Source: a virus. Taken from it: a DNA stretch of 64,000 bases. The translations under genes were made by a program, and so were the position numbers. The DNA is taken from the IMG/VR virus record IMGVR_UViG_3300000980_000024; one strand, written 5' to 3'. The stretch's first letter is position 1. The number at the start of each line of letters is the position of its first letter. This document shows, piece by piece, positions 90 to 48,061 of this stretch. Below the pieces are notes generated by a model, which saw only the letters and a list, made by a program, of their open reading frames with translations, made no database searches and was not told the origin of the DNA.

Positions 90-575
90 ATGCGAATATC
101 AGAAAAACGTCTAAAAGAAACAGTCGGTAGAATTAACCGCCGAATTTTATTTGACGGCGCCATTGATTTAATTGGTGTTCAAGGTCGCTACGGTTACCAA
201 GCCATTGACCATTACCGAATAACACCGGATGGCCGATTAAGTTGTCAATGTAACATTCACTCAGGCACTAATAAGGAATGCTTACAATCAGCTTATGACT
301 TTACAAACACTGACAGAGTGACCACACGTGAGCAAGCTAAAGCCGTGTTAGTGTTGGTTGGTGTTGACTTCACCACCCAAGACTTTCACGAGTTAAGCAT
401 GCACATCGTTGATCATTTAGTAACACTAGCCAAGTTAACCAAGTACCGCAAACCCAAGAACGTAGTAAGCCTTGCTTTTTACTTTTACCAGCACTTGAGT
501 AAAAACAAGTACAAGCATATCGATATTGATAGCTTGACGGGCGCTTACTTGCTCAACCTCGATGAGAAGTGGTAA
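90..575 (+). CDS. hypothetical early protein
   Basis: 161-aa ORF; GAGGAG RBS about 7 nt upstream. Confidence 0.7.
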   Translation: MRISEKRLKETVGRINRRILFDGAIDLIGVQGRYGYQAIDHYRITPDGRLSCQCNIHSGTNKECLQSAYDFTNTDRVTTREQAKAVLVLVGVDFTTQDFHELSMHIVDHLVTLAKLTKYRKPKNVVSLAFYFYQHLSKNKYKHIDIDSLTGAYLLNLDEKW

Positions 576-631
576 CGACTCATTAGAATTAAGTGACATT
601 AAAAAATTCAACAATCTAATAAGTGAAACTG

Positions 632-763
632 ATGAACAACAAACAAATTAAAAAAGCAATGTACTGGTTGGAACGTAAAGTTATGTTGAAAGTAGTAGCT
701 AAACATTTCGATCTAACAGTTGATGAACTCACACAACTAATCGAAGATTATAAGAACCAATGA
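632..763 (+). CDS. small hypothetical protein (43 aa, MNNKQIKKAMYW...)
   Basis: Read by hand, below the ORF-track cutoff; ATGA overlap with the next ORF at 760. Confidence 0.5.
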   Translation: MNNKQIKKAMYWLERKVMLKVVAKHFDLTVDELTQLIEDYKNQ

Positions 764-942
764 AAACAACGCAAGAGTATTTAAAAAACTCTCACAGTTG
801 CCCAAAATGTAACAGCACAGATGTATCAGGCTCGAAGTTACAATCAGATGATGGCGGTGTTTGGTAAGACATAACGTGTAACAACTGTGAATATGAATAC
901 ACTGATTTTTATTCGTTAACACACTATAAGGAAAACCAATGA
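760..942 (+). pseudogene. Zn-ribbon protein (CPKC...CNNC) interrupted by an in-frame TAA at 865-867
   Basis: ATGA coupling at both ends (760 and 939-942); two CxxC pairs flank a single internal stop (W*DITC). Confidence 0.6.
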
Positions 943-1355
943 GAACAAGTAAAAGATGGCAACCGATTCGTGATGGTGATAAATATTGTGCACCTGCATG
1001 TGGTGCAGGTTGTACTTACGATCAGTATGAATGGGCTAAACAATGTGGTCATGCGTTGGTAGCAATGCTTGACTCAAATAATTTTAAACCCCGAATATGG
1101 GAGAACTTAGGTTGGCACTATTCAGCAACAACCAAAGATGATAATCATGAGGAGGGTGATTTTTTCATACAGGTGTACGACTATAATCAAGAAAGACAAG
1201 TTAAGTATTGGGTCGATATACAGGTGGGTGGTAGACAATACACTGGTCATTTCGATTGCCCGAACGAAGGTATTAATTCTTTAATGACACAACTGATGTC
1301 TGATGTTATGAAGATGCAACTCGCACTAAACAAATATGAGGATGATGACAAATGA
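939..1355 (+). CDS. hypothetical protein (CAPACGAGC motif)
   Basis: 138-aa ORF, AAGGA RBS, coupled to neighbours. Confidence 0.7.
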   Translation: MRTSKRWQPIRDGDKYCAPACGAGCTYDQYEWAKQCGHALVAMLDSNNFKPRIWENLGWHYSATTKDDNHEEGDFFIQVYDYNQERQVKYWVDIQVGGRQYTGHFDCPNEGINSLMTQLMSDVMKMQLALNKYEDDDK

Positions 1356-3693: not shown

Positions 3694-3977
3694 TGAGATA
3701 TAAACTTAACAACACAGCACTTGAGAATCTAAATCTATTAATCGAAGACGCAAAACTCAAGAACACCCACGAGGCTAACGTCATTGACGATTCAATTGGT
3801 GAACAACTGCGCAAAGTTCGTGACGACAAACGTGATGAGCAGATCATGGGGTTGCAGGAAAAAATTAGCTCTTTACGTAATATAATATTTGATTTGATTG
3901 AAGACGAGGCTGCCCATCTACCATCAACACAACAAGAACAACTGGAAGTAATACTGGAGGACTCAAGTTATGAGTAG
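3693..3977 (+). CDS. hypothetical coiled-coil protein
   Basis: 94-aa ORF, GAGG RBS, coupled. Confidence 0.65.
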   Translation: MRYKLNNTALENLNLLIEDAKLKNTHEANVIDDSIGEQLRKVRDDKRDEQIMGLQEKISSLRNIIFDLIEDEAAHLPSTQQEQLEVILEDSSYE

Positions 3978-4323
3978 CTTATATTTTTTAATTTCAAACG
4001 GTATGGATGAAGACATATCAAACATCAATGGTTACGAACAGATTGCAGAGTGTCTTGGTTGTGACAAAGTTGAACCCGATGACATTTTAGAAATGTTAAA
4101 CGACATGGATATTGACAGGCAAACCGACATACACATTGGTAACATGCATGCTCAAATTTTACTGACCAGAATCAAACTCAAGTTAGAAAATACTCACCCT
4201 GATCTTGACGTTACTTACTACGTGAATGCAATGGACACTCATTTAAACATTAACGGTGAAAAAGTTTACACCATTGGCGATGTAAATGAGGTGATGCATG
4301 AAGAGGTGACAGATGGTCAGTGA
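3970..4323 (+). CDS. hypothetical acidic protein
   Basis: 117-aa ORF, GGAGG RBS. Confidence 0.65.
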   Translation: MSSLYFLISNGMDEDISNINGYEQIAECLGCDKVEPDDILEMLNDMDIDRQTDIHIGNMHAQILLTRIKLKLENTHPDLDVTYYVNAMDTHLNINGEKVYTIGDVNEVMHEEVTDGQ

Positions 4324-4549
4324 TATCACAGAAGAGATGGTACCAATCGTCACCGACTATGCTAGAGATAAACAATTGTACTGGGCTGACAATGAAATAC
4401 TCGATATTGATTTCGACATAAACGAACCACTAGTAAAAATTGAATTCAAAACAACATGTTTAGATAGGGGTTATGACACAGACACAATCCCTTTCACCAG
4501 TTTAATATCATACGTGTACTCACACATTAAGAACGGAGTAAAGCAATGA
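4313..4549 (+). CDS. hypothetical protein
   Basis: 78-aa ORF, GAGG RBS. Confidence 0.6.
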   Translation: MVSDITEEMVPIVTDYARDKQLYWADNEILDIDFDINEPLVKIEFKTTCLDRGYDTDTIPFTSLISYVYSHIKNGVKQ

Positions 4550-5973
4550 CTAATCATTCACACTTTTCACACGCAACATATGACCCTGATGATAATAAAA
4601 TTCGCATGTATCCAAACGATATTGATGATCGTATGGAGCGTGAAGATTGGGAGAAACTATGTAGGCAAATGAAATTTCAGAAAGCATACAAGCAAGGTTG
4701 TTACTTTGCGGTGTGGACGTATGCACGTAAAGAGTTTGCTGTAAGCTGGTGCGGTGAGATTGTACGAGAAGGTTCAACGCTTGAAGAACGAGCGACGGCT
4801 AGAGCATTACGCTTCGATCAACACGCCATGAATCGGTACGCTGACAGTAATACATACCTTCGCAGTGCTCAACAGTACGCAGAACAATCAAACAATCAGC
4901 CTATTCTCAGCGGTCATCACAGTGAACGCAAGATGGAAACAGCGGAGAAGCGACGCAAGTCTGCTGAAGCTAATGCAATTAAGAATCGTGAGACTGCTAA
5001 CTATTGGTTACAGAAAGCCACAGGTGTTGAGCGTCACGCTAACCGCATGCAATCACGTAAGCTAGTTGAAGGTCGAATTGAAACAATACTGAAAGACATG
5101 CGCGGCTATCAACGCAGAATCAACCACGCTAACAACATGGTTGAGCAGTGGGGAACTCTTGCGATTTGTAAACTTGAAGGTCGACAGTTACATGCTTATG
5201 TCAAGCATCTTGCTGGTAATCATTATGATTATGGTGCAGCTATACCGGCCAACTGTGAGTTTACATACGACAACATCAAAGAAGACATCCACTTATTAAA
5301 TGATGAAGAAGTTAGGGACCATGTGTGCCGTACTATTGAGTTAGCTTGGGGCGATGTTGTCTCGTCACCATACTTGAACGAAAGCATTGAGCACTGTTTA
5401 AACCGATTGGCTTATGAGTCTGGTAAGTTTAGTAACACCCCATGGTATGATGGCAACATAACAGCCGCTGTGATTCAAACGTTTGCCCGTAAGCACGGTG
5501 CTGAAAAACCCAAAGCACGCAAGACAGAGGACGACTATTGGGAACTTGAAACTGAGTCACCGTTACCTATTCATTGGGGTGGTAACGTCTCAGTGAGCAA
5601 GACTGATGATGAATGGCGTGAGTTTATGAACGACCTTTACTATGAAGTACCTCAAAAAGCACCAGCTAAAGCACCGATACTGAACTTTGAAATACCAGGT
5701 GGTACGTTGTCAGTGAAACAGTGGGGTAACATTAACAAAATGCGTCAAATTAAAATGACCAAACAAGAGTACATGAACGTTCACTCAGATCAACGTGGTG
5801 TAACAATGCATCAGAGTGGCACCTTTCGTGTCAAGTTTTGTAAAGACCCTAATACACGTGAAGCCGGTAAGCCTTGGTCGGGCGAGTGGTGTGTTGTGTT
5901 GCTGACCGATAGTAAAGTTCATCCAATCCCTGAAGTATTAACAACCCCTAGTTCTTGCGAGAGTGAAGCATGA
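4546..5973 (+). CDS. DUF3560-like protein
   Basis: N-terminal ATYDPDDNKIRMY and central QPILSGHHSERK, typical of DUF3560 proteins of plasmids and phages. Confidence 0.7.
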   Translation: MTNHSHFSHATYDPDDNKIRMYPNDIDDRMEREDWEKLCRQMKFQKAYKQGCYFAVWTYARKEFAVSWCGEIVREGSTLEERATARALRFDQHAMNRYADSNTYLRSAQQYAEQSNNQPILSGHHSERKMETAEKRRKSAEANAIKNRETANYWLQKATGVERHANRMQSRKLVEGRIETILKDMRGYQRRINHANNMVEQWGTLAICKLEGRQLHAYVKHLAGNHYDYGAAIPANCEFTYDNIKEDIHLLNDEEVRDHVCRTIELAWGDVVSSPYLNESIEHCLNRLAYESGKFSNTPWYDGNITAAVIQTFARKHGAEKPKARKTEDDYWELETESPLPIHWGGNVSVSKTDDEWREFMNDLYYEVPQKAPAKAPILNFEIPGGTLSVKQWGNINKMRQIKMTKQEYMNVHSDQRGVTMHQSGTFRVKFCKDPNTREAGKPWSGEWCVVLLTDSKVHPIPEVLTTPSSCESEA

Positions 5974-6335
5974 GTTATCAAAGAGAAATACCCCGTGATT
6001 TATTTAACGAAGCTAAGTTATTAAAGTGTTTAGGTTTGCTAAGTTTAAAAGTTCATGATGGTGAGTTACCGCCGTTTGTAGAGATCAGACTTTATCAAGA
6101 CCCACAACGTGATGAATATGGTGAACCAGATTTAGGTTTTGATATTAGGCAAGACCCTTCTGATGGCAGCATTTATGCGAACGGGATACAGATATTAATT
6201 AAAGGTCAACAAGTACCACATCACGCACGTCTTAATGACCGATCTAATTTCTCGCTCATGTTACGTATCGATGAGGTTGACTATGATGTATTTAATGAAC
6301 AGGGTGAAATTGTTTGCCCATATCTTGTGGAGTAA
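5970..6335 (+). CDS. hypothetical protein (YQREIPRDLFNEAKLLKCLG)
   Basis: 121-aa ORF with ATGA overlap. Confidence 0.7.
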   Translation: MSYQREIPRDLFNEAKLLKCLGLLSLKVHDGELPPFVEIRLYQDPQRDEYGEPDLGFDIRQDPSDGSIYANGIQILIKGQQVPHHARLNDRSNFSLMLRIDEVDYDVFNEQGEIVCPYLVE

Positions 6336-6337
6336 CT

Positions 6338-6925
6338 GTGAAGCTATTTGACAATATAAAACGCAAAGCAATTGACATAACTAAGCGTGAACCGTTCAAT
6401 GATATTGACCCTCACCAAACACCTGAGCCGCTACGGGTACATAAAGACAATGAGTGCCATGTCACACCTGATTGGTTAGCCAATCAAATGGTGGAGTATT
6501 TAATACCTCACTCTGATCATATCGTACTTGAACCAAGTGCTGGGACAGGTCAACTAGTAAAAGCTTTAATGATTGGCGGTGTACACTCTAACAACATTAA
6601 AGCAGTTGAAATTAATTTATCATTGGTTAACAACCTTCAGTCTAATTTCTGCAATATGAAGATTAGTTACAATGATTTTCTTGACAACCGAGTCATGAGA
6701 GAAGTGACTTTTGACAGGGTGATAATGAACCCACCGTTCAAAAAAGCAATACAGCATGTCAGTAAAGCACATCAGTTACTCAAACCTGATGGGATATTGA
6801 TCGCGCTAGTACCTAGTACCTTTAAACATGAAAACTTTTACAACTGTGAGGTACTGCTAGAGCTAGATAACACCACATTCAGTACCACCAAAGTCACCAC
6901 TAAAGTCATACGAATTATTAAATAA
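6338..6925 (+). CDS. N6-adenine DNA methyltransferase-like (class I SAM-dependent)
   Basis: VLEPSAGTG (motif I) precedes IMNPPF (motif IV); GTG 6338 with GGAG RBS preferred over 6314. Confidence 0.85.
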   Translation: MKLFDNIKRKAIDITKREPFNDIDPHQTPEPLRVHKDNECHVTPDWLANQMVEYLIPHSDHIVLEPSAGTGQLVKALMIGGVHSNNIKAVEINLSLVNNLQSNFCNMKISYNDFLDNRVMREVTFDRVIMNPPFKKAIQHVSKAHQLLKPDGILIALVPSTFKHENFYNCEVLLELDNTTFSTTKVTTKVIRIIK

Positions 6926-6941
6926 CTACGGAAAATTTAAA

Positions 6942-7535
6942 ATGAGATTAAATAAAAAACATAAACAAGCTTTGTTAAACTTCGCATTGGAAAAAACCAC
7001 TATCGACATTAAGGTGTTAGATGAACACGATAAACTCCAAGTAAAGACCATCAATGCTATAGCGGAGCATTTTGTAAAGAAAATGGGTGTGGATTATTCG
7101 TCATTGAAACGTCAAGGTTCACTGAAAGAATTATCACGTTTAAATTTTCGCATCTATTCAGGTGAAAAAGATAGATATGACCGTGAAATATTTAAAGATT
7201 ACAAAGTTGGTATACCTAAACTTGATGATGTGATAGTTGAAGTACCCCGAACTAAGGACAACAGTGACTTTAATGAGGCTTACTACACGATACCCAAGTC
7301 ATTGCAAAACTTATGTATTAAGTACATTGAGTCAGTTAGCAATGTAGCTAATCTCAAAAGAGAGCACCGACAAACTTTCGAGAGATTGATTAACAGCATG
7401 ACTACGTTTAAGCGTGCATGTGAAGTATTCCCTGAATTTGAAAATGCTGCTCACATAATCATGAGTAACACGCAATTGGTGACGACTAACGCCGAGTTTC
7501 AAAAAATGATTAAACAATATGAGGTGATCAAATGA
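6942..7535 (+). CDS. Nmad5-like (nucleotide modification associated domain) protein
   Basis: MRLNK.. N-terminus and C-terminal TTFKRACEVFPE resemble Nmad5 as recalled. Confidence 0.5.
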   Translation: MRLNKKHKQALLNFALEKTTIDIKVLDEHDKLQVKTINAIAEHFVKKMGVDYSSLKRQGSLKELSRLNFRIYSGEKDRYDREIFKDYKVGIPKLDDVIVEVPRTKDNSDFNEAYYTIPKSLQNLCIKYIESVSNVANLKREHRQTFERLINSMTTFKRACEVFPEFENAAHIIMSNTQLVTTNAEFQKMIKQYEVIK

Positions 7536-8008
7536 GTAACGGTTTCTTAGCAATGGGTGAAGTGATAGCAGTTAAACCATACAACGACTTGAGTGAGTTC
7601 AGTAGTATCACAGAGGTGAGTGACGCATTAGATGACAGCACGATGCATCATCTAACCGAAGATGAATATAGTGAACTGACTCATGCTGAATGGATTTCGG
7701 GTGACTATCAACAGTCATTCACTCAGGTTTTAGAATGTGTTGAGGATTGGGCCGAAGAGAATGGTTTAATTCACAGCGAAGAAGATGCGACTGAAAAATT
7801 TGAACACACGTTGATTGACAACATGGATACAATTGCTTTAATCAGAATGGTAGATCACGCCAATGATCTGGATACTTACTATTCAGAATGGGCTGATGGT
7901 ATGGTTAAAGATAACCAACTACATCAAGAGCAATATAGCAGCTATGAATATGTGGGTGATGTTGATGATCTTAAACAGAAAGCCTTACACAATTCAGGAG
8001 AAAGTTAA
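7532..8008 (+). CDS. hypothetical acidic protein
   Basis: 158-aa ORF, GAGGTG RBS. Confidence 0.7.
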   Translation: MSNGFLAMGEVIAVKPYNDLSEFSSITEVSDALDDSTMHHLTEDEYSELTHAEWISGDYQQSFTQVLECVEDWAEENGLIHSEEDATEKFEHTLIDNMDTIALIRMVDHANDLDTYYSEWADGMVKDNQLHQEQYSSYEYVGDVDDLKQKALHNSGES

Positions 8009-12266: not shown

Positions 12267-12545
12267 ATGATAACAATTGCAGAGTTTTTACTTCTGACCT
12301 TTGTTATATTGGCACCAGTGTTTATGTATCTAGGTGCGTGGTTGTGCGAAAGAAGTTGTAAACCCTTCTACATCGACTTGATCAATGAAGAACTTAAAAC
12401 GTGCACGATGAGTAATGGTAATTACAGACACGTTGGTTTTCAAGAACAAAGCTTATTAAGAATAGCTAAACGACTCAAGGTTGAGAATAGAATTGATCAA
12501 TACACGAGTAACGTCTATCCGTATTTAGAAAAAGGCGGTCAATGA
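12267..12545 (+). CDS. membrane-anchored hypothetical protein
   Basis: N-terminal hydrophobic helix; GGAGG RBS. Confidence 0.6.
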   Translation: MITIAEFLLLTFVILAPVFMYLGAWLCERSCKPFYIDLINEELKTCTMSNGNYRHVGFQEQSLLRIAKRLKVENRIDQYTSNVYPYLEKGGQ

Positions 12546-12925
12546 TGCATGCGAAACTAACTAACAAAGGTAAGTTCGATATAGAAATTGCACCCGAGGT
12601 TGTACTGAAAAGTTTGTCATTGTTTGAGTTTTCGGCTGTGATCACAGCTTTAGCTGAGCACACTGAGCATGATAAGACTAGATACCTTGACGCAATACCG
12701 ATGAATTACACCAGCGAAACGGTATCAGTACACAATGATGAGATGCCTCACGGTACAACACCAGACTTCTTTGACTTCATGGTTCGAAGTGAGAAGTTAT
12801 CAGAAGAAACAATCTATTTTGAAATAGAATACATCCCAAATGAATTAAGCAACGAGATCGATGATATTATATCGAAAGCTTTCAAACTAACGGAGGAAAC
12901 TAATGCGGGAAAAACACCTTGTTAA
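12542..12925 (+). CDS. hypothetical protein
   Basis: 127-aa ORF with ATGA overlap. Confidence 0.6.
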   Translation: MMHAKLTNKGKFDIEIAPEVVLKSLSLFEFSAVITALAEHTEHDKTRYLDAIPMNYTSETVSVHNDEMPHGTTPDFFDFMVRSEKLSEETIYFEIEYIPNELSNEIDDIISKAFKLTEETNAGKTPC

Positions 12926-13334
12926 ACTGGCTTATGAGTTAGCAAAAGCTGCCCATGCCGGGCAAAAGTACGGTGATAACGACTACTTTGATTATCATGT
13001 TGTAGGTGTAGCTAGTGCGTTTGATAGTATTGAAGACCAAGACCGTCACATTGTAGCGTTACTGCATGATGTACTGGAAGATACGTCTGTTGATTCACGA
13101 AAAATAAAAAAACTTTTTGGTGCTAAGATTGCAACAGCTGTTATATTTATTACCAAGTATAGTGATGAAACTTATTTTCAATACATTAAAGATTTATTGC
13201 AAAATCAAATAGCAACTGATGTAAAGATTGCAGACATAGAGTTTCATTTAAGGCAACCAACTGTGCGAAGCGAAGATCGCTATAACAAAGCACTCAATAT
13301 ATTAAAGGAAGGAAAACAATGTTTAAGATCATAA
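12903..13334 (+). CDS. HD-domain small alarmone hydrolase-like (RelA/SpoT hydrolase, Mesh1-like)
   Basis: AKAAHAGQ..G..Y..H, ALLHDVLEDT, VKIAD motifs. Confidence 0.85.
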   Translation: MREKHLVKLAYELAKAAHAGQKYGDNDYFDYHVVGVASAFDSIEDQDRHIVALLHDVLEDTSVDSRKIKKLFGAKIATAVIFITKYSDETYFQYIKDLLQNQIATDVKIADIEFHLRQPTVRSEDRYNKALNILKEGKQCLRS

Positions 13335-13675
13335 TAATTAATTTCATACTACTATCACTAACAGCATGTGTGACACTAGGTGAGGGGCCAACTAACAATA
13401 CCGATGACATAATTGTCAATGTAACCACGTTGGCCGAAGTCAATGACGAGTATGGTAAAGCCACATCGTCATTCTTGCTGACATCCGAAGATCAAACTAC
13501 TCAGCTATGGTTCAACTGGACTAATGAATTGATTTTGCCACCAGTAAACGCTGACATAATGTTAGTGTACCGTACAACCAATAGACCCATGCTACAAACT
13601 AATGTTTATCAAACAGTGTTGTTGATCAAAGGTAATGTAGTCGTTAAGAAATATCATGAGGTGTCACAGATATGA
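13319..13675 (+). CDS. predicted lipoprotein
   Basis: MFKIIIINFILLSLTAC lipobox. Confidence 0.7.
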   Translation: MFKIIIINFILLSLTACVTLGEGPTNNTDDIIVNVTTLAEVNDEYGKATSSFLLTSEDQTTQLWFNWTNELILPPVNADIMLVYRTTNRPMLQTNVYQTVLLIKGNVVVKKYHEVSQI

Positions 13676-14079
13676 TTAAGTCACCACCAATAGGTTACAG
13701 AATATCCAGATTGAATGACTCTGTACCAGAGGCACCTAAATATTTTGAATCGTATGAAACTGCGTGTGATTGGAAGACGAGCCAACCCAAAGCATCACAC
13801 AGTCTTTATGCGATAGGTCCGACATACAAACCATTAGATAAAACGTATGACCATAAACCCAAAGTGTTAACACAAGGTGCTGATGTTAGTCGGTATCATA
13901 GGACAAGTGACGAGGCTGGTATGCAAGATCAAGCGTTTCAAGCTGGTCAAGTCCATCGAACATTATCTGACACAGAGTATAAGTTTAAACCAAAGAACTT
14001 CTTCACTAGAATTGCGCTAGGTAGTGTTGCTGTGTTTATTATTTTAAAAATAGCATCGTTGTTTATTGGGGGTGGTTAA
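13672..14079 (+). CDS. hypothetical protein with C-terminal membrane anchor
   Basis: IALGSVAVFIILKIASLFIGG. Confidence 0.6.
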   Translation: MIKSPPIGYRISRLNDSVPEAPKYFESYETACDWKTSQPKASHSLYAIGPTYKPLDKTYDHKPKVLTQGADVSRYHRTSDEAGMQDQAFQAGQVHRTLSDTEYKFKPKNFFTRIALGSVAVFIILKIASLFIGGG

Positions 14080-29541: not shown

Positions 29542-30057
29542 ATGACAGCAGTCACTACAACGGAATTACATCAAGTAAGTGGGTTGTTAGCAGCAGTACC
29601 CAGTTGGTTAGATAAAGCTTTACTTGTCGAGAAAGAAATTGGTATGGATAATATCTATGCCATGATTTCAAATGGTCAAGCTGTAGAAAGAATCGCCGCG
29701 TCACTGTACATAACAAAAGAACAAATGAAGTTCATGTTGACTCGTACACCCAAACACCGTAAAGATTACATGAATGCCCGTGCGTTTAAACAAGCTGAGA
29801 GCAGCATGGATGTACTTGAGAATCCTTCATTTAAAACTGCTGGGATGTTAATTAAAGAACAGGCAAGTGCTGCTAAGCATCACAATCAAGTCATTGATCG
29901 TGCAATGAACACATTAAATAAAAGCGATGAGGCTAAAGCGAATGAAGCTATCATCGTTAACAACACAGTAGTTGTGAGAGATTCAGACGACATCGCACCT
30001 CTACCCGATGAACTTAAAGATATTATGGAAGGAGAGTTTGAAGATGTTAGTTCTTGA
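29542..30057 (+). CDS. putative terminase small subunit
   Basis: HTH-like N-terminal half then helical region; upstream of terL. Confidence 0.5.
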   Translation: MTAVTTTELHQVSGLLAAVPSWLDKALLVEKEIGMDNIYAMISNGQAVERIAASLYITKEQMKFMLTRTPKHRKDYMNARAFKQAESSMDVLENPSFKTAGMLIKEQASAAKHHNQVIDRAMNTLNKSDEAKANEAIIVNNTVVVRDSDDIAPLPDELKDIMEGEFEDVSS

Positions 30058-30265
30058 ACGTAAGTTAGAGAAAAGCGTGTTAGTTGGTGCAGGTGAAGAT
30101 GAGGTTAAAGTTACGGTACTTGGTGTAACTGAAGACCCGTTAACTGGTGAGGTTAGTGTGAAGCTGGGGTTTATTGGAGGTAAGCACATTTGTATTGATC
30201 GGGAAGAAGTAAGACCCAAGCGTAACGAACGGATAAAGAAGATACTAAATGGTACAAACTCTTAA
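30044..30265 (+). CDS. csrA: CsrA-like RNA-binding protein
   Basis: MLVLERKLEKSVLVG...VKVTVLGV....VKLGF.GGKHICIDREEV; ATG 30044 after GGAG. Confidence 0.75.
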   Translation: MLVLERKLEKSVLVGAGEDEVKVTVLGVTEDPLTGEVSVKLGFIGGKHICIDREEVRPKRNERIKKILNGTNS

Positions 30266-33956: not shown

Positions 33957-34043
33957 TTACTTCTTTTTCTCAGCTTCTTTCTTTGCTTTCTTTAAAGCTT
34001 TGCTATTTTTAACTGCTTGAGCGTGTGGGTTTTTAGTAGCCAT
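33957..34043 (-). CDS. 28-aa lysine-rich peptide MATKNPHAQAVKNSKALKKAKKEAEKKK
   Basis: Read by hand; AGGAG RBS and its own promoter. Confidence 0.6.
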   Translation of the reverse strand: MATKNPHAQAVKNSKALKKAKKEAEKKK

Positions 34044-34085
34044 TATGACTCTCCTATTTAAAATTAAAAAAAAAATTGTAGAATT

Positions 34086-34113
34086 ATTGTATTAGATTCT
34101 AAAATTTAGTCAA
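34086..34113 (-). promoter_or_regulatory. sigma70-type promoter for the basic peptide
   Basis: TTGACT-N16-TACAAT on the minus strand. Confidence 0.6.
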
Positions 34114-34125
34114 GTTGGTTGGGTT

Positions 34126-35253
34126 TCAATCTACCATTGCTGGTATGTAACCACTTGATGTTAACTCAGCATCAAAGTTATTAACGTTCTCAGTGAGACG
34201 AGCAACCATTTGATCCCTGAAGCCATCAGCAGCTACAGCTAACTCACTAGACTTATTGTCAGCAACTTTACCACCATAACCATCGTCAACAAATAATGTG
34301 TCTCTAAATGATTTGTTGCGGTCATACAGGTATAACGATGTGTCACCTCCTTTCCACCGACCAGCATAACTAGCCTCTTTAATGGGGTACTTTTGATAGA
34401 GTGGACCGAACGGGCTGTTGTTAATATTTTGATCCAGTGTCAATAGTTTGGTTTCATCACCACTACGCATCATTCCCCTGAACCCTTCTTCATCCCGAAA
34501 AAAGTTGTTGAAGTGACTAATGTATGGTCTTATGCGGTTCCATGCGTCAACATATTCAGGGTGCGCTTCTCTGTTCCAGTTGGCCACCCAATAAACATCA
34601 GTAGTTTTTAGCGTACCAAGCTTATCTTTCATCCCATCGATAGCGTTAGCGAGGGTAATGATAGACCCCCATATCTCGATGACCAACCGTTCGCCATCTC
34701 GATTGGCTTGTTGTATTTCGTTGCGATAAAATTGAGCACCTTTTTCTGACGTGTATACAGGGTACTGTTTGTACAATGGTGATACTTGAGTGTTCAGCTC
34801 GGCTAACCGAGACTCAATGTGTGTCTTGGCTGTACTGCGTGTACTATCAACTGTAGATATAATGCCAAGTAAGTCCCAACGTAATCGTATGTAACTGGCT
34901 AAAGTGACACCTAGTGTGTGATAATCATCAGGGTCACCAGTTGAATGCATGTCAGTATCGATGATACGTCGGTGGTCATATGTCACAATAGGTACATCGG
35001 GTACCGGACCATCAACACCGAGGTAAGGTTTACGCCCCTCTTCTCGGCCCGATGTATCGTAGTGTGTCCACGCGTCAGCACCTGCTGTGGCAACATCTGG
35101 ATTCATCGATAAATATAAAGCGGCGTCAAACCAATCAGGTATAACAGAGGTTACATTCAGTTCATCTCTAGTGTCATCTTTAGTCATCTCATACAGTAAA
35201 CCCAGCACAATAAGTACGGCCAATACTGCTAATACAATTTGTGTAGTTGTCAT
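34126..35253 (-). CDS. membrane-anchored nucleoside-hydrolase-like (DUF1593/Sde182-like) protein
   Basis: N-terminal TM; FDAALYLSMNPDV...HY...G..EGRKP module; IIDTDMHSTGDPDD; LVIEIWGS; VYWV. Confidence 0.65.
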   Translation of the reverse strand: MTTTQIVLAVLAVLIVLGLLYEMTKDDTRDELNVTSVIPDWFDAALYLSMNPDVATAGADAWTHYDTSGREEGRKPYLGVDGPVPDVPIVTYDHRRIIDTDMHSTGDPDDYHTLGVTLASYIRLRWDLLGIISTVDSTRSTAKTHIESRLAELNTQVSPLYKQYPVYTSEKGAQFYRNEIQQANRDGERLVIEIWGSIITLANAIDGMKDKLGTLKTTDVYWVANWNREAHPEYVDAWNRIRPYISHFNNFFRDEEGFRGMMRSGDETKLLTLDQNINNSPFGPLYQKYPIKEASYAGRWKGGDTSLYLYDRNKSFRDTLFVDDGYGGKVADNKSSELAVAADGFRDQMVARLTENVNNFDAELTSSGYIPAMVD

Positions 35254-35265
35254 TCGTTGCCCCGT

Positions 35266-35625
35266 TTAGTTTGTTGGTTGTTGACTAGGTGTACACCAGT
35301 CAGGAAGATTGATAAGTTGGGTGCCTTTGCTGGATACCCAAATAGTTTGCTGATGTTGCTCCACTCGATAACACCTATCTCTGTCAATGTATTGAATCGT
35401 TGACAGTAGTTCTTTATAGCAATCCTCGAAGTCACCAACGACTTCAATCGGTTTACTACATCTAGGTGTTGCTATCATCTGCTCAACGTCCCAATACAAA
35501 GTGCTCGGTATCTTAGGGGGTTCTTCTCTTAACGATGACGTTATTCGATAACCATCGTTCCAAGCACACCCACTAATAAATAGGCTTGCGAGAATCAGGC
35601 ACAGGTACTGGCTGACATTCCACAT
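35266..35625 (-). CDS. lipoprotein, probable o-spanin (Rz1-like)
   Basis: LFISGC lipobox, Pro-rich, several Cys; overlaps the 3' end of the Rz-like gene. Confidence 0.6.
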   Translation of the reverse strand: MWNVSQYLCLILASLFISGCAWNDGYRITSSLREEPPKIPSTLYWDVEQMIATPRCSKPIEVVGDFEDCYKELLSTIQYIDRDRCYRVEQHQQTIWVSSKGTQLINLPDWCTPSQQPTN

Positions 35626-35983
35626 AATCTTGCTCCGTTGCGTTTAAATTTTCAGAAGATAAATAAGATTCTTTCTCTGCTTTGTACTCACCCATCTTAG
35701 CCCAAGCATTGTTGCGTTGATCGATAACTTCTTCTCGACTTTTTTGCAATGCTGTAACACTGAGTTCCAATCTGTCCGACGTGCTTCTCTCATCTCTCAA
35801 TACAGTCTCTATTGCAACAAGAGCAGACTTTAAGTCAGCGACATCTGATTTACTTTGTTTTAGTGTCTCACGTAAGTTATCGGCACTACCTGAGTACCAC
35901 CAAGCGAAACTAATCGGTACTACAAAAGCTAAAACCTTAATAGCTTTCCACCAGAAACTAACTGTTGATAGTGTAGCCCACAT
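35573..35983 (-). CDS. probable i-spanin (Rz-like)
   Basis: N-terminal TM, long coiled coil, C-terminal C.PVPVP. Confidence 0.7.
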   Translation of the reverse strand: MWATLSTVSFWWKAIKVLAFVVPISFAWWYSGSADNLRETLKQSKSDVADLKSALVAIETVLRDERSTSDRLELSVTALQKSREEVIDQRNNAWAKMGEYKAEKESYLSSENLNATEQDYVECQPVPVPDSRKPIY

Positions 35984-36861
35984 TATATTGTCACTATATT
36001 GCCATCATTAGTTGAACACACCGACGTCACGCCGTTGACATCGAATAACAAACTAGTCGGGTCAGCAATTTCATCTTCAAACGCTTCGCGTACTGTGTAC
36101 CCCTGAACCGTACAACTAGCAGCGTCAAATACTTCAGTACTACCCTCTACATCGTTAGATGCTGTTAACTGAACATCAGCGTCTTTCGTACCGATACCAC
36201 CAGCCTCATCGTAGTTACCTGATTCAGTAATTGTAGCCCCATTATCAGCTTCTTGTGATGATGTAATGGCTCGATTACCATCACCATTTATTACAGTCCG
36301 GTTACCTGCACTACCAGCGATGGCACTCAACCCCGCTGTTGCGATTTCAGCTGTAGTGTTCTGACCGTTGATACCGTAGGCAAGCCCACCAACAATACCT
36401 AATGCTGTAGGGATGATAGACATACGTGCTTTACTTCGCTCAGTCTTACCCTTTTCTTGGGCAATCGCTACGTCATTACTGTTAGTGCCCATATTGGTGC
36501 AAGGTTGTGTGTCGGGTTTATTTGCTGCGGTAATTGCTTTGTTTGATTCAACAAGTGCGTTAGCCATCATAAATATTGCTAAGTCACCCGCTGATAACCC
36601 AGCCGGTATTTGCATACTAGATGATTTGTTGATTACTGCTTGTGTATCCCAGCACTTACCTGTTGCATTTGCAATGGCAATGTCAGCACTAACCTTTTGA
36701 GACTGAATGAACTCATTGCTGGTTAATGTTTGCTCAGTCTCGGTCATGATCACTTGCCCGTTGACACCATGTGTCGTTGTGCTTTTAATGGTTGACCTGT
36801 TTGATATTGAACATGCGGATAATATTGCAGTGAGTAGCAATAACGTAACTATTTTTTTCAT
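35983..36861 (-). CDS. lipoprotein with internal Gly/Ala-rich hydrophobic segment
   Basis: MKKIVTLLLLTAILSAC lipobox; ALGIVGGLAYG...AGLSAIAG. Confidence 0.75.
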   Translation of the reverse strand: MKKIVTLLLLTAILSACSISNRSTIKSTTTHGVNGQVIMTETEQTLTSNEFIQSQKVSADIAIANATGKCWDTQAVINKSSSMQIPAGLSAGDLAIFMMANALVESNKAITAANKPDTQPCTNMGTNSNDVAIAQEKGKTERSKARMSIIPTALGIVGGLAYGINGQNTTAEIATAGLSAIAGSAGNRTVINGDGNRAITSSQEADNGATITESGNYDEAGGIGTKDADVQLTASNDVEGSTEVFDAASCTVQGYTVREAFEDEIADPTSLLFDVNGVTSVCSTNDGNIVTI

Positions 36862-36904
36862 GTGATCTCTCTATTTTATTGGTAATTACCACATAATTTA
36901 CCAC

Positions 36905-37579
36905 CTAGTTGCAAATTTTTCCACCCATCTCACTAAACAAAGGTTGGTATCTGCTAATGTGATGACGATATGCGTAGTTTTCAGCACATGCTCTGATCGA
37001 TCTACGGCGACCATTGGGTAAAATATCCACGCCACATATGGATTCAGCCGATTCAAACGACATAATTGGTGCGGCTCTTAGTTCCCATACACACCACCAA
37101 CCACCGTTATACCGGCACTCATCAACGGCCTTGTTATCACAGTAATTATCGAAAGGTTCTATGTCCATGTATTGATTCATTGCCTCTGAGCAGGGTACAG
37201 CCCAGTACGGGTCCATCGGGTCACCCTCCCCGAGATGCGCACAATATGACCTTTGCGCTGTGTCCACAGTGGGTTGTGTGAATTGCATTAAACCTAACCC
37301 ACCATACGGACTTTCAGCGTATTGATTACCTTTACTTTCCACCCACATCTGAGCCATTGATCGGCTAGGGTTTTCAAAGTCCTCGAACAAGTGTGAGTAT
37401 TTTTGGGCGTTAACAGGTAATGTGTTGACTATTTTTTGTTTTGGTGGATCACTGACAACTACAGTTGATGCTTCCTCAACAGACTGTGTGTCAGGTGACC
37501 ACAGCGAAGCACAGCGAACCAATGCAGTAATTATAATTAATACTATTGCGATACAACAATAGCGATAGCGATTATCCAT
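36905..37579 (-). CDS. lytic transglycosylase (SLT-like) endolysin with N-terminal TM
   Basis: QMWVES.G, GLGLMQF..PT, YNGG; signal-anchor/SAR-like N-terminus. Confidence 0.8.
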   Translation of the reverse strand: MDNRYRYCCIAIVLIIITALVRCASLWSPDTQSVEEASTVVVSDPPKQKIVNTLPVNAQKYSHLFEDFENPSRSMAQMWVESKGNQYAESPYGGLGLMQFTQPTVDTAQRSYCAHLGEGDPMDPYWAVPCSEAMNQYMDIEPFDNYCDNKAVDECRYNGGWWCVWELRAAPIMSFESAESICGVDILPNGRRRSIRACAENYAYRHHISRYQPLFSEMGGKICN

Positions 37580-37845
37580 ATTGCCATTATCCCCACACTT
37601 AACGGTCCAATTGTTTTTTGATTGGTTTTACTGTCTTGTTCTGACTCACACACCTCATGAGTCCTGATGTGGTTGAACACTCGACTACCTAAGTACAATA
37701 TTACCAGATCAATAATTATATTTCCGTGATCAAGTACCGCTGTCCAGAACCAAGCATTATCAACGTTGCGTACATGGCCAGATGTAAATACTGTATACAT
37801 CATGGTAAGACCAATACCTATTACTATAAACCAAATTACTCTCAT
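37543..37845 (-). CDS. three-TM membrane protein, candidate holin
   Basis: Three hydrophobic segments, immediately upstream of the endolysin. Confidence 0.55.
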   Translation of the reverse strand: MRVIWFIVIGIGLTMMYTVFTSGHVRNVDNAWFWTAVLDHGNIIIDLVILYLGSRVFNHIRTHEVCESEQDSKTNQKTIGPLSVGIMAIWIIAIAIVVSQ

Positions 37846-37848
37846 TCG

Positions 37849-38334
37849 CTAACCTTCCACATTTTTAAATATTACTATTTGAACTCTACGATTACAGGCC
37901 CTGCCGTCCGATGTTGAGTTATTACATTCAGGGTATTGACTACCATACCCCTTAACGTCTATTCGATCTATATGATAACCATGACGGACTATCTCTTTAG
38001 CTACATTACTAGCTCTGCGTAATGATAATCTTAAATTAAAATTGTCATTACCTACGTCATCAGTGTGCCCCTCAACATAAAGTAGTCGATTGGTAAAATC
38101 AGAACTTAGTACTCCCGCAACTTCACTAACTATTATCCTAGAAGATTCCATCATCTGATCATCACCCATTTCAAACATGGGGTCTTCAAAAAACAAAACA
38201 GCTAAACCTTGTTTATTCTTAACCTGCACACCTGACACATATTTTAATTTCTCATCTAGTATTACAAAATCATCATTAATTAAAGTCTTACATGCTGGTA
38301 GATATAGCAGGAGTCCCAATAGAACATACTTCAT
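37849..38334 (-). CDS. OmpA-family peptidoglycan-binding lipoprotein
   Basis: LPAC lipobox; VEGHTD..G....N..LS.RRA..V; GYG...P; NRRV. Confidence 0.9.
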   Translation of the reverse strand: MKYVLLGLLLYLPACKTLINDDFVILDEKLKYVSGVQVKNKQGLAVLFFEDPMFEMGDDQMMESSRIIVSEVAGVLSSDFTNRLLYVEGHTDDVGNDNFNLRLSLRRASNVAKEIVRHGYHIDRIDVKGYGSQYPECNNSTSDGRACNRRVQIVIFKNVEG

Positions 38335-38345
38335 ACTCTTGCAGG

Positions 38346-38696
38346 TTAATCATCTCGCGCTAGTTCATCAACTATTCGTTCAAGTAATCGTGATTGTTTC
38401 TCTTGTGATTCACGGGCTTCTTTTTGATCGTCATCATAGTCGTCTTTAAATTCTTTAAAACTTTCCGACAACGTGCTTAGTTTTACGTTGGTAATTTCAA
38501 CGTCAGTTTTAATTTCATTTTGACTTGTTCCTAAGCTTTCAATCTTAGCCGCGTTCGTTTCAACCTTATCCTTCGTATTGCTTTGCGCCGCAGACAACGT
38601 ACCCCATGTGACACCCGCTACTAATATTAACACACATAGCTTAACTAAGTTACCAATTCCAGATGCCGCGTCCCATATTCTTTTTTCGGTTGACAT
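38346..38696 (-). CDS. single-TM coiled-coil protein (holin/antiholin-like)
   Basis: LVKLCVLILVAGVTWG followed by a coiled coil; ATG 38696 (MSTEKR) preferred. Confidence 0.55.
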   Translation of the reverse strand: MSTEKRIWDAASGIGNLVKLCVLILVAGVTWGTLSAAQSNTKDKVETNAAKIESLGTSQNEIKTDVEITNVKLSTLSESFKEFKDDYDDDQKEARESQEKQSRLLERIVDELARDD

Positions 38697-38709
38697 TTTT
38701 ACCCCCAAG

Positions 38710-39285
38710 TTATAATGAATATAACGATAACCCTGTACCGTCACCAGGTGGTACAGGAGGTGTGCCCGTTATACTAACAGTTGCAAAATTAGATATAGGG
38801 TTAGTTCCAGAAAATAAATAACTAAATGTGCCATCTGCATTCTCTTCTTCTATAACCGTATACGGGCCTGAGTTTAAAGTCAAATCACCTGCCTCTATAG
38901 AGTAAGGTTTATTTTCTAAGAAAGCTTCCCACGGGACACTTAAATTATTATTACTAGATACTTGTAATAAGAATGGTGTAGTACCACCTTGATCTTGAAA
39001 ATTATCAGATCTTATTGAACCAGTTGTAGCTGGTAGATTAGGGGAAAGAGGGGCTACATATTCTGTCACAACCCCTGTTATAACTGAACCCATTGAATCA
39101 ACATAAACTGTTTCAATAATTTGTCCTGTACTAGGCTCATACTTCACTATAGGAGTTACGTTAACAGGCTGTCCGTCAACATTCACTGTAATGTTTTGTA
39201 GAGGTAATAGACCCGTTTGATTACTGATACGGGTTACTATTTCATCTTTGGCACACCTAATAATATTTATTAATTCTTGACTCAT
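38710..39285 (-). CDS. putative fibre/spike protein 1
   Basis: Shares the TPIV....STG.I....YVD..G..ITG module with the next two ORFs. Confidence 0.5.
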   Translation of the reverse strand: MSQELINIIRCAKDEIVTRISNQTGLLPLQNITVNVDGQPVNVTPIVKYEPSTGQIIETVYVDSMGSVITGVVTEYVAPLSPNLPATTGSIRSDNFQDQGGTTPFLLQVSSNNNLSVPWEAFLENKPYSIEAGDLTLNSGPYTVIEEENADGTFSYLFSGTNPISNFATVSITGTPPVPPGDGTGLSLYSL

Positions 39286-47569: not shown

Positions 47570-48061
47570 TTACCCTTTAGTTAATAAATAATCAAAAAAG
47601 CTTTTTTCTTCTTTTGTTAAGTCCGATTCAACATCCGACTCTGTTAGTAATTCAATAACATCTTTCCTAGTTGCTAACCGAGGATACATGATTCGATGTG
47701 TATCTGCGCGTGATTCATCAATCTGATCAATGAATTCTTTATGTTCGGTTATGTCATCATTAGGATAATGAAACGCAACAATCATATCATTGATGTTACC
47801 AAGGTTCTCATAATTTACTCGATCTATTGCTAACGCTGCCGTGACGTTAGTTTGTAAACCAAACACATCTGTTACACCTACTTCAGTAGCCTGTTCAATT
47901 GTCATTGGCATAAATCCAAACTTACCACCGTCACCGATGTACTCATCGTCACCTTCAGATAACAACAATGCTCTTGTCACAAACCCAATAGGGTCAGGGT
48001 GACCAAAAGGTTTAATAAAACCCTCATATATTTCCCTCAATTGCAATGAATCTAATATCAT
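47570..48061 (-). CDS. virion-associated degenerate lytic transglycosylase-like protein
   Basis: ALLLSEG, KFGFMPMT, N...A......MIVAFHY parallel the SLT motifs. Confidence 0.5.
   Translation of the reverse strand: MILDSLQLREIYEGFIKPFGHPDPIGFVTRALLLSEGDDEYIGDGGKFGFMPMTIEQATEVGVTDVFGLQTNVTAALAIDRVNYENLGNINDMIVAFHYPNDDITEHKEFIDQIDESRADTHRIMYPRLATRKDVIELLTESDVESDLTKEEKSFFDYLLTKG

Follow-up and report, generated by a model that had tools for sequence, protein, structure and literature searches.

The eight-gene block and its setting

The 64,000-nucleotide (nt) stretch of DNA analyzed here, from IMG/VR virus record IMGVR_UViG_3300000980_000024 and hereafter called the window, covers most of a phage genome of ca. 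67.6 kb. We focused on eight minus-strand genes located between positions 34126 and 38744, which we consider, with fairly good confidence, to be a lysis cassette that has been enlarged by accessory exported proteins and that closes the late operon. The plus strand of the window carries replication genes, an SNF2 helicase, the small and large terminase genes, and the portal gene. Converging on it, the minus strand carries capsid and internal-virion genes, a gene for an ejection protein of 2226 amino acids (aa), three fibre-like genes, and then the eight-gene block. Searches of the phage collection with the DNA and with the portal protein gave no match to the window, and no integrase appeared among the large open reading frames (ORFs) scanned in it. 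We take this to be a novel, uncultured, podovirus-like and probably virulent phage of a marine Gram-negative host.

All eight ORFs of the block were recovered, and each codes for a protein with a membrane or export signal, in agreement with the initial annotation of this DNA. Read in the direction of transcription, they are g132, g161, g100, g224, g292, g136, g119, and g375. In a crude hydrophobicity scan, 20 of the 88 window genes passed, those of the block consecutively, and a run of eight such genes is far beyond chance. Neighboring genes of the block are separated by -53 to +43 nt. The coding strand has no terminator-like site between them, the sole minus-strand candidate within the block being inside the coding sequence of g292. 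The GC content at third codon positions (GC3) of the extra genes (g132, g161, and g292) was inside the range of the neighboring genes, and composition gave no sign that they had been recently acquired.

Gram-negative phage lysis is usually taught as the work of a holin, an endolysin, and a spanin. In the window we recognized this core (g100, g224, and the pair g136/g119) together with two added modules, g132/g161 and g292, and the last gene g375. The additions probably travel independently. Gene identities, signals, synteny, and recurrence are read from the sequences, and all functions given to the additions are inferred. Enlargement of the cassette by accessory exported proteins had been proposed in the initial annotation and is supported. 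Each extra was found again with a fixed neighbor (in contig L009 for the g132/g161 pair and in L010, L098, and the P0028 contig for g292).

Core lysis genes and their counterparts in related phages

The gene g224 (36905..37579, minus strand) codes for a family-1 lytic transglycosylase (SLT), predicted to be Sec-exported or membrane-tethered and the probable endolysin. It matched PF01464 (7e-6; 26.0 bits against a cut-off of 21.3) and the endolysin family phrog_669 (1e-12), and the SLT motifs E81-S82, G96-L97-Q99 (GLMQ at 96), and Y157-N158-G159-G160 were invariant in five homologues. Its N-terminal transmembrane (TM) segment or signal is strongly hydrophobic and has no lipobox. Two SLT homologues from related phages do carry one, LTAAC in L001 (13572-14186, minus strand) and FLYGC in L005 (14274-14927, minus strand), the latter with an Asp at +2 that suggests retention in the inner membrane. 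We know of no description of lipid-anchored endolysins, and these lipobox-bearing enzymes raise the question of how a tethered, exported muralytic enzyme stays inactive until lysis. A second, weakly transglycosylase-like protein is encoded in the window at 47570-48061 (minus strand; phrog_13449, 2.5e-4). Lacking a signal and encoded beside the 2226-aa ejection protein, it probably belongs to the virion and is distinct from the exported SLT of the cassette.

Directly upstream, and overlapping the SLT gene by 37 nt, g100 (37543..37845, minus strand) codes for a 100-aa protein with three TM segments, our holin candidate. Its hydrophobic segments lie at residues 3-21 and 79-97, with a weaker third one between them. 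Size, TM segments, and position next to the endolysin fit a holin and are conserved in relatives; a homologue immediately precedes the SLT gene in L001 and L007, and a weaker match does so in L005.

The two genes g136 and g119 have the properties of an i-spanin and an o-spanin, respectively. The first (35573..35983, minus strand) matched the Rz-like spanin family phrog_214 at 6e-5 and combines an N-terminal hydrophobic segment with a charged, helical periplasmic part. The second (35266..35625, minus strand) is an Rz1-like lipoprotein with a canonical lipobox (ISGC, Cys20, Ala at +2), and its gene overlaps that of g136 by 53 nt. In topology, in the overlapped lipoprotein gene, and in their place downstream of the endolysin, they agree with two-component spanins, for which embedded, overlapped, and separated architectures have been distinguished (PMC6139136).

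The core resembles the canonical Gram-negative cassette, as in P2 (lysB/lysC, an overlapped spanin) or, in function, in lambda (S-R-Rz/Rz1). The small multi-TM protein lies upstream of the muralytic enzyme, the type-II coiled-coil i-spanin gene is followed by an overlapping o-spanin lipoprotein gene, and the whole stands at the end of the late operon. In lysis, g100 would permeabilize the inner membrane, as family membership and synteny suggest, the exported and membrane-tethered g224 would cut the cell wall, and the overlapped spanins would break the outer membrane. The window differs from the canonical arrangement in that its enzyme is predicted to be Sec-exported and membrane-tethered (some relatives have a lipoprotein here), the 292-aa lipoprotein stands between endolysin and i-spanin, a gene pair for a coiled-coil and an OmpA-like protein precedes the holin candidate, and a gene for a protein with a predicted nucleoside-hydrolase fold follows the spanins.

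To place these differences, we compared the block with relatives found through portal homologues (37 to 61% identity), which led to eight loci of uncultured phages that share the backbone of the window. In three of them (L001, L005, and L007), a lysis cassette lies between the portal and fibre genes. The order in L001 is a 5-TM protein, a 130-aa TM protein, a homologue of the 3-TM protein, the SLT, an Rz-like protein of 108 aa, an Rz1-like protein of 97 aa (ISGC), and an anchored 306-aa protein; it is that of the window minus the OmpA gene and g292. In L005 we found a 100-aa TM protein, a 3-TM-like protein, the SLT, a 127-aa TM protein, a 420-aa lipoprotein, and a 112-aa TM protein, and in L007 an 88-aa protein, the 3-TM protein, the SLT, an Rz-like protein of 158 aa, and an Rz1-like protein of 83 aa. 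The 3-TM protein and the SLT are conserved as homologues across these relatives, and the Rz/Rz1 slots are alike in topology and position only. From this comparison, the OmpA gene and g292 appear to be additions to a conserved core. No SLT cassette was found at the same position in four other relatives, and a search of the phage collection with the SLT gave one weak match only.

The g292 lipoprotein and the g132/g161 pair

Between the endolysin and the i-spanin, g292 (35983..36861, minus strand) codes for a predicted outer-membrane lipoprotein of a new small family. The initial annotation had described it as a 292-aa lipoprotein with a hydrophobic Gly/Ala segment. The first part stands, since the lipobox is canonical (LSAC, Cys17, Ser at +2; TAC and VGC in homologues). 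The Gly/Ala segment (residues 147-165) reached a KD19 hydrophobicity of only 1.36 (1.18 to 1.54 in homologues) and seems too weakly hydrophobic for a membrane span. The conserved core of the protein, residues 99-236, has strong motifs and a probable disulphide pair. No profile match was found in Pfam (E up to 10), PHROG, or PDB. No relatives were detected in the phage collection or in IMG/VR scans with the single sequence or the alignment, and two further genome-collection scans returned only the L098 prophage described below.

Two other identities were tried and rejected. As a unimolecular spanin of the T1 gp11 type, g292 would need a C-terminal TM domain besides its lipobox, and its only other hydrophobic stretch is the internal, weakly hydrophobic segment just mentioned. 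As a TraT protein (PF05818), it was compared by hhalign with TraT of the F plasmid, which aligned over 26 columns with a probability of 0.7%, and a tblastn search of the plasmid collection gave no match.

The gene context of the family was constant. In the window, the stop of g292 overlaps the start of the i-spanin gene g136 by 1 nt. In L010, the lipoprotein (P0027) is 80% identical to g292 and is followed by homologues of Rz (64% identical to g136) and Rz1 (71% identical to g119), the contig being cut on the upstream side. The P0028 contig, known from a gene table, has a GH24 lysozyme, a 43-aa gene, a 262-aa lipoprotein (46%) that overlaps the next gene by 1 nt, and, after these, genes for 143 and 93 aa. 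The L098 locus belongs to a myovirus-type prophage, which has a baseplate gene and lies in the metagenome-assembled genome of a gammaproteobacterium; in it, a holin (phrog_20), a 3-TM protein, an SLT (phrog_669, 2e-34), the 259-aa lipoprotein, Rz (phrog_89), and Rz1 (phrog_456) are joined by 4-nt overlaps. Its 3-TM protein and Rz are not detectably related to those of the window, and the lipoprotein is still 42% identical to g292. Thus, the gene stands directly before the i-spanin in all four places found (window, L010, P0028 contig, and L098) and follows an endolysin, either an SLT or a GH24 lysozyme, wherever upstream DNA or gene calls exist. By sequence and context, we take the g292 proteins to be a new family that is particular to lysis cassettes.

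Three features, namely this constant slot, a reading frame that runs into the start of the i-spanin gene, and a sequence that was kept while the neighbors were exchanged, suggest that g292 may act at, or control, the outer-membrane step of lysis, a role to which, for g292 taken alone, we give nearly even chances. The stronger conservation suggests contact with a conserved host structure rather than with the fast-evolving spanins. A family that holds its slot and 42 to 46% identity amid swapped lysis genes would indicate that the outer-membrane step involves a further conserved function.

The main rival is that g292 and g132/g161 are no lysis components but envelope proteins of the Cor, Llp, TraT, Bor, or T4 Sp kind, which serve superinfection exclusion or receptor masking and merely ride late transcription beside the lysis genes. 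Like TraT, Cor, Llp, and Bor, g292 is a predicted outer-membrane lipoprotein with a central Gly/Ala-rich segment, and it is near TraT in size; its layout of lipobox, central segment, and C-terminal domain is TraT-like, and hhalign aligned that very segment. Exclusion lipoproteins are often located after fibre genes, as this block is. The homologous cassettes in L001, L005, and L007 have neither extra, which suggests that lysis in this lineage can do without them. However, the TraT score is too low for homology, and, unlike these proteins, g292 is embedded in the cassette and overlaps the i-spanin start. Morons usually lie at cassette edges with their own signals, whereas g292 occupies the slot between endolysin and i-spanin with overlaps of 1 to 4 nt in the window as well as in two further lineages (for L010, which is closely related to the window, only the i-spanin side is available). 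The GC3 values, similar to those of neighboring genes, speak against the rival too, and the lack of an integrase among the large ORFs scanned makes a benefit to a lysogen unlikely. On balance, we regard exclusion or masking as a serious but unlikely explanation.

The other module opens the block. The ORF of g132 (38346..38696, minus strand) remains open back to a GTG at 38744, and the likely start is the ATG at 38696 (116 aa), with a GGGGG ribosome-binding site, 13 nt past the stop of the preceding fibre-like gene. The product is predicted to be a type-II (N-in) membrane protein, with a single TM segment (ORF residues 27-45) and a charged, helical C-terminal part that would form a coiled-coil-like periplasmic domain. 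Next to it, g161 (37849..38334, minus strand) codes for an exported protein similar to the OmpA C-terminal domain, and thus for a putative peptidoglycan-binding protein that is possibly a lipoprotein. The initial annotation had called it an OmpA lipoprotein. The domain was confirmed, with a complete PF00691 match (1.5e-15; 57.7 bits against a gathering cut-off of 27.2) and PDB matches to OprF, YiaD, YfiB, Omp38, and MotB (E values from 1e-12 to 4e-15), and the wall-binding motifs GHTD (at 89), LSLRRA (at 103), and NRRV (at 148) aligned to the OprF and 9v99 structures. The lipid anchor is doubtful, as the putative lipobox LPAC (Cys15) has a Pro at -2 that falls outside the consensus [LVI][ASTVI][GAS]C. 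Lipidation is not a conserved feature, because the signal peptide of the one close homologue (P0025, 45%) has no Cys.

This homologue lies in L009, a 2.1-kb contig in which a 93-aa TM coiled-coil gene (29% identical to g132, E 7e-8) precedes P0025 with an ATGA overlap, so that g132 and g161 appear, from sequence and gene order, to be a two-gene module. The surroundings in L009 differ from those of the window; the pair is preceded by a PAP2-like gene and followed by a Cys-rich ORF. The PAP2 match (289-1062, plus strand) was weak (6.6e-5, below the cut-off); PAP2 proteins are lipid phosphatases or haloperoxidases. A neighbor of that gene has a Rho_N/SAP-like domain. No homologue of g132 was found at 80 metagenome loci with OmpA relatives. 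Matches to the OmpA domain in the phage collection were discarded as bacterial flanks or misfiled bacterial DNA (a YfiB beside an integrase, a PomA/MotB operon, and some unverified records). The sole IMG/VR match of the OmpA profile was on a contig classed as viral (L015:1269-3898, plus strand), with a ZorAB-like pair in which a MotA-like protein of 649 aa that ends in a long coiled coil is followed by a 222-aa MotB/OmpA-like protein.

With its full domain and the motifs GHTD, LSxRRA, and NRRV, g161 is akin to Pal, YiaD, YfiB, and the C-terminal domains of OprF and MotB/PomB. It differs from them in being phage-encoded and late-expressed, and in its 161-aa size, short linker, and uncertain lipid anchor. 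It also pairs with a separate coiled-coil inner-membrane protein, whereas MotB is fused to a TM helix and OmpA to a beta-barrel. The two products could form a brace from the inner membrane to the wall that modulates envelope failure or the entry of a second phage. The ectodomain of g132, ca. 85 residues, would by our own estimate extend ca. 12 nm as a single helix and reach the wall layer bound by the OmpA domain. Such a brace might delay lysis, loosen the tethers between the host outer membrane and wall, or hinder superinfecting phages, and if it braces or releases the envelope it would be a new phage control of lysis timing or superinfection.

Alternatively, g132 and g161 could be a second, non-canonical spanin-like pair with an outer subunit carrying the OmpA wall-binding domain. 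In gene order and topology the two agree with the two-component architecture classed as separated (PMC6139136), and the L009 homologue of g132 matched the Rz-like spanin family phrog_739 at 2e-4. Nevertheless, the block already has a canonical Rz/Rz1 pair with overlapped genes, the atypical lipobox of g161 and the lack of a Cys in its homologue leave no conserved outer-membrane anchor, and a wall-binding domain suits a tether better than a membrane-fusion subunit, all of which makes a second spanin improbable. OmpA goes unmentioned in the spanin survey (PMC6139136). In the searchable literature we found neither a description of an OmpA-type protein that binds the wall and is paired, next to a phage holin gene, with a coiled-coil membrane protein, nor a paper on lysis cassettes that contain OmpA-domain proteins or additional conserved lipoproteins.

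The initial annotation had suggested that the extras could form a trans-envelope complex that times or localizes lysis, an idea that can be widened to one complex of all eight products. As such a complex would have it, the eight genes are transcribed together and closely spaced, and their products are targeted to the membrane or envelope, but its parts are distributed differently. The 3-TM protein and the SLT occur in four relatives, the g132/g161 pair stands alone in L009, g292 is found with foreign endolysins and spanins, and members of the g375 family are also known from other gene contexts than lysis. We therefore hold a single complex to be very improbable; the extras form two separable modules with different distributions. 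Roles of the extras in lysis timing, exclusion, or release control, as first proposed, are hypothetical.

The boldest reading would make g292 a third partner or gatekeeper of the two-component spanins, translationally coupled to the i-spanin and kept while spanins, holins, and endolysins were exchanged. It would at the same time make g132/g161 a phage-made tether between the inner membrane and peptidoglycan that sets when and where the envelope fails. Both halves together we consider speculative and rather unlikely. Several points weigh against our preferred reading of the block, a lysis core with separate additions. Neither the OmpA gene nor a g292 homologue is present in the cassettes of L001, L005, and L007, an absence that the initial annotation had named as part of what would refute its proposal, and these close, long relatives presumably lyse without either. 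The g132/g161 module is known from two instances only, the window and L009. The g292 family has five members, with four homologues of g292 of which one comes from a gene table without DNA, and its models had no usable fold (pLDDT of 31 with AlphaFold2 [AF2]; 0.43 for the Atlas model). A lipoprotein gene beside spanin genes can also be an unrelated moron, as is reportedly the case for lambda bor. For the holin candidate g100, no named holin family was matched in Pfam or PHROG, its sole match being a family of unknown function (phrog_37623, 0.006), and its C terminus ends in VSQ, without the usual charged tail.

The last gene of the operon and neighboring features

The block ends with g375 (34126..35253, minus strand), the product of which has an N-terminal anchor, one copy of a ca. 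37-aa repeat, and a domain with a predicted nucleoside-hydrolase fold. It had first been described as an anchored hydrolase. The N-terminal TM segment is indeed present, and the domain is modelled with a nucleoside-hydrolase fold. The protein is probably not an envelope hydrolase. In the AF2 model (pLDDT 76), residues ca. 95-360 adopt this fold, with YeiK/RihB as the best Foldseek match (E 6e-6; TM scores 0.48/0.57), and the phmmer family has an invariant DTD...DPDD motif (D99, T100, D101, D107, P108, D109, and D110). The modelled fold and the N-terminal Asp cluster resemble the fold and the metal-binding cluster (DxDxxxDD) of Ca2+-dependent nucleoside hydrolases (E. coli YeiK/RihB and RihA, and the Sde182 NH-like domain). 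Differences from these are an identity of only 10 to 15%, the lack of a match to the Pfam family of classical nucleoside hydrolases, the anchor, and the repeat module; the sole Pfam match was Sde182_NH-like at 0.0096, below the cut-off. The linker after the anchor is Lys-rich in most homologues, which hints at a cytoplasmic domain, and net acidic in the window copy.

The 306-aa gene after Rz1 in L001 is a distant member of this family (E 5e-9 in a set of ca. 45 proteins). The reading of g375 as a lysis-specific gene was rejected, as the closest homologue (P0030) lies beside a Metallophos gene and small ORFs, and because this relative is outside any lysis cassette, g375 is better treated as a separate question. 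No relatives were found in the phage collection or in IMG/VR scans with the single sequence or the alignment. The repeat (residues ca. 40-80, FD..YL..NPDV...H....G..EGR) had no Pfam match and occurs in 5 to 18 copies in thousands of large proteins (3697 matches at E<=0.001). Directly past g375, inside the gap between the two converging operons, we noted a promoter-like site (TTGACT-N16-TACAAT), a ribosome-binding site (AGGAG), and a Lys-rich ORF of 28 codons (33957-34113, minus strand).

In the early region of the window, strongly hydrophobic segments were found in four small plus-strand genes (1809-2033, 12267-12545, 13319-13675, and 13672-14079), whose products are candidates for membrane proteins made early in infection, such as might serve exclusion or host takeover. 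Around the packaging genes, six of the eight related contigs (L002 to L007) have a small CsrA-family gene (PF02599) between the small and large terminase genes, just upstream of the latter. The window counterpart lies at ca. 30044-30265, and this arrangement is a conserved trait of the lineage. Related phages also have mobile or defence-type insertions in this region. In L004, an IS605 OrfB/TnpB-like gene directly follows the portal gene (12480-13580) and a resolvase with a TnpB-like gene lies upstream (6110-7757), while in L002 an IS1595 transposase adjoins a gene with a BstA_C domain (3756-5693).

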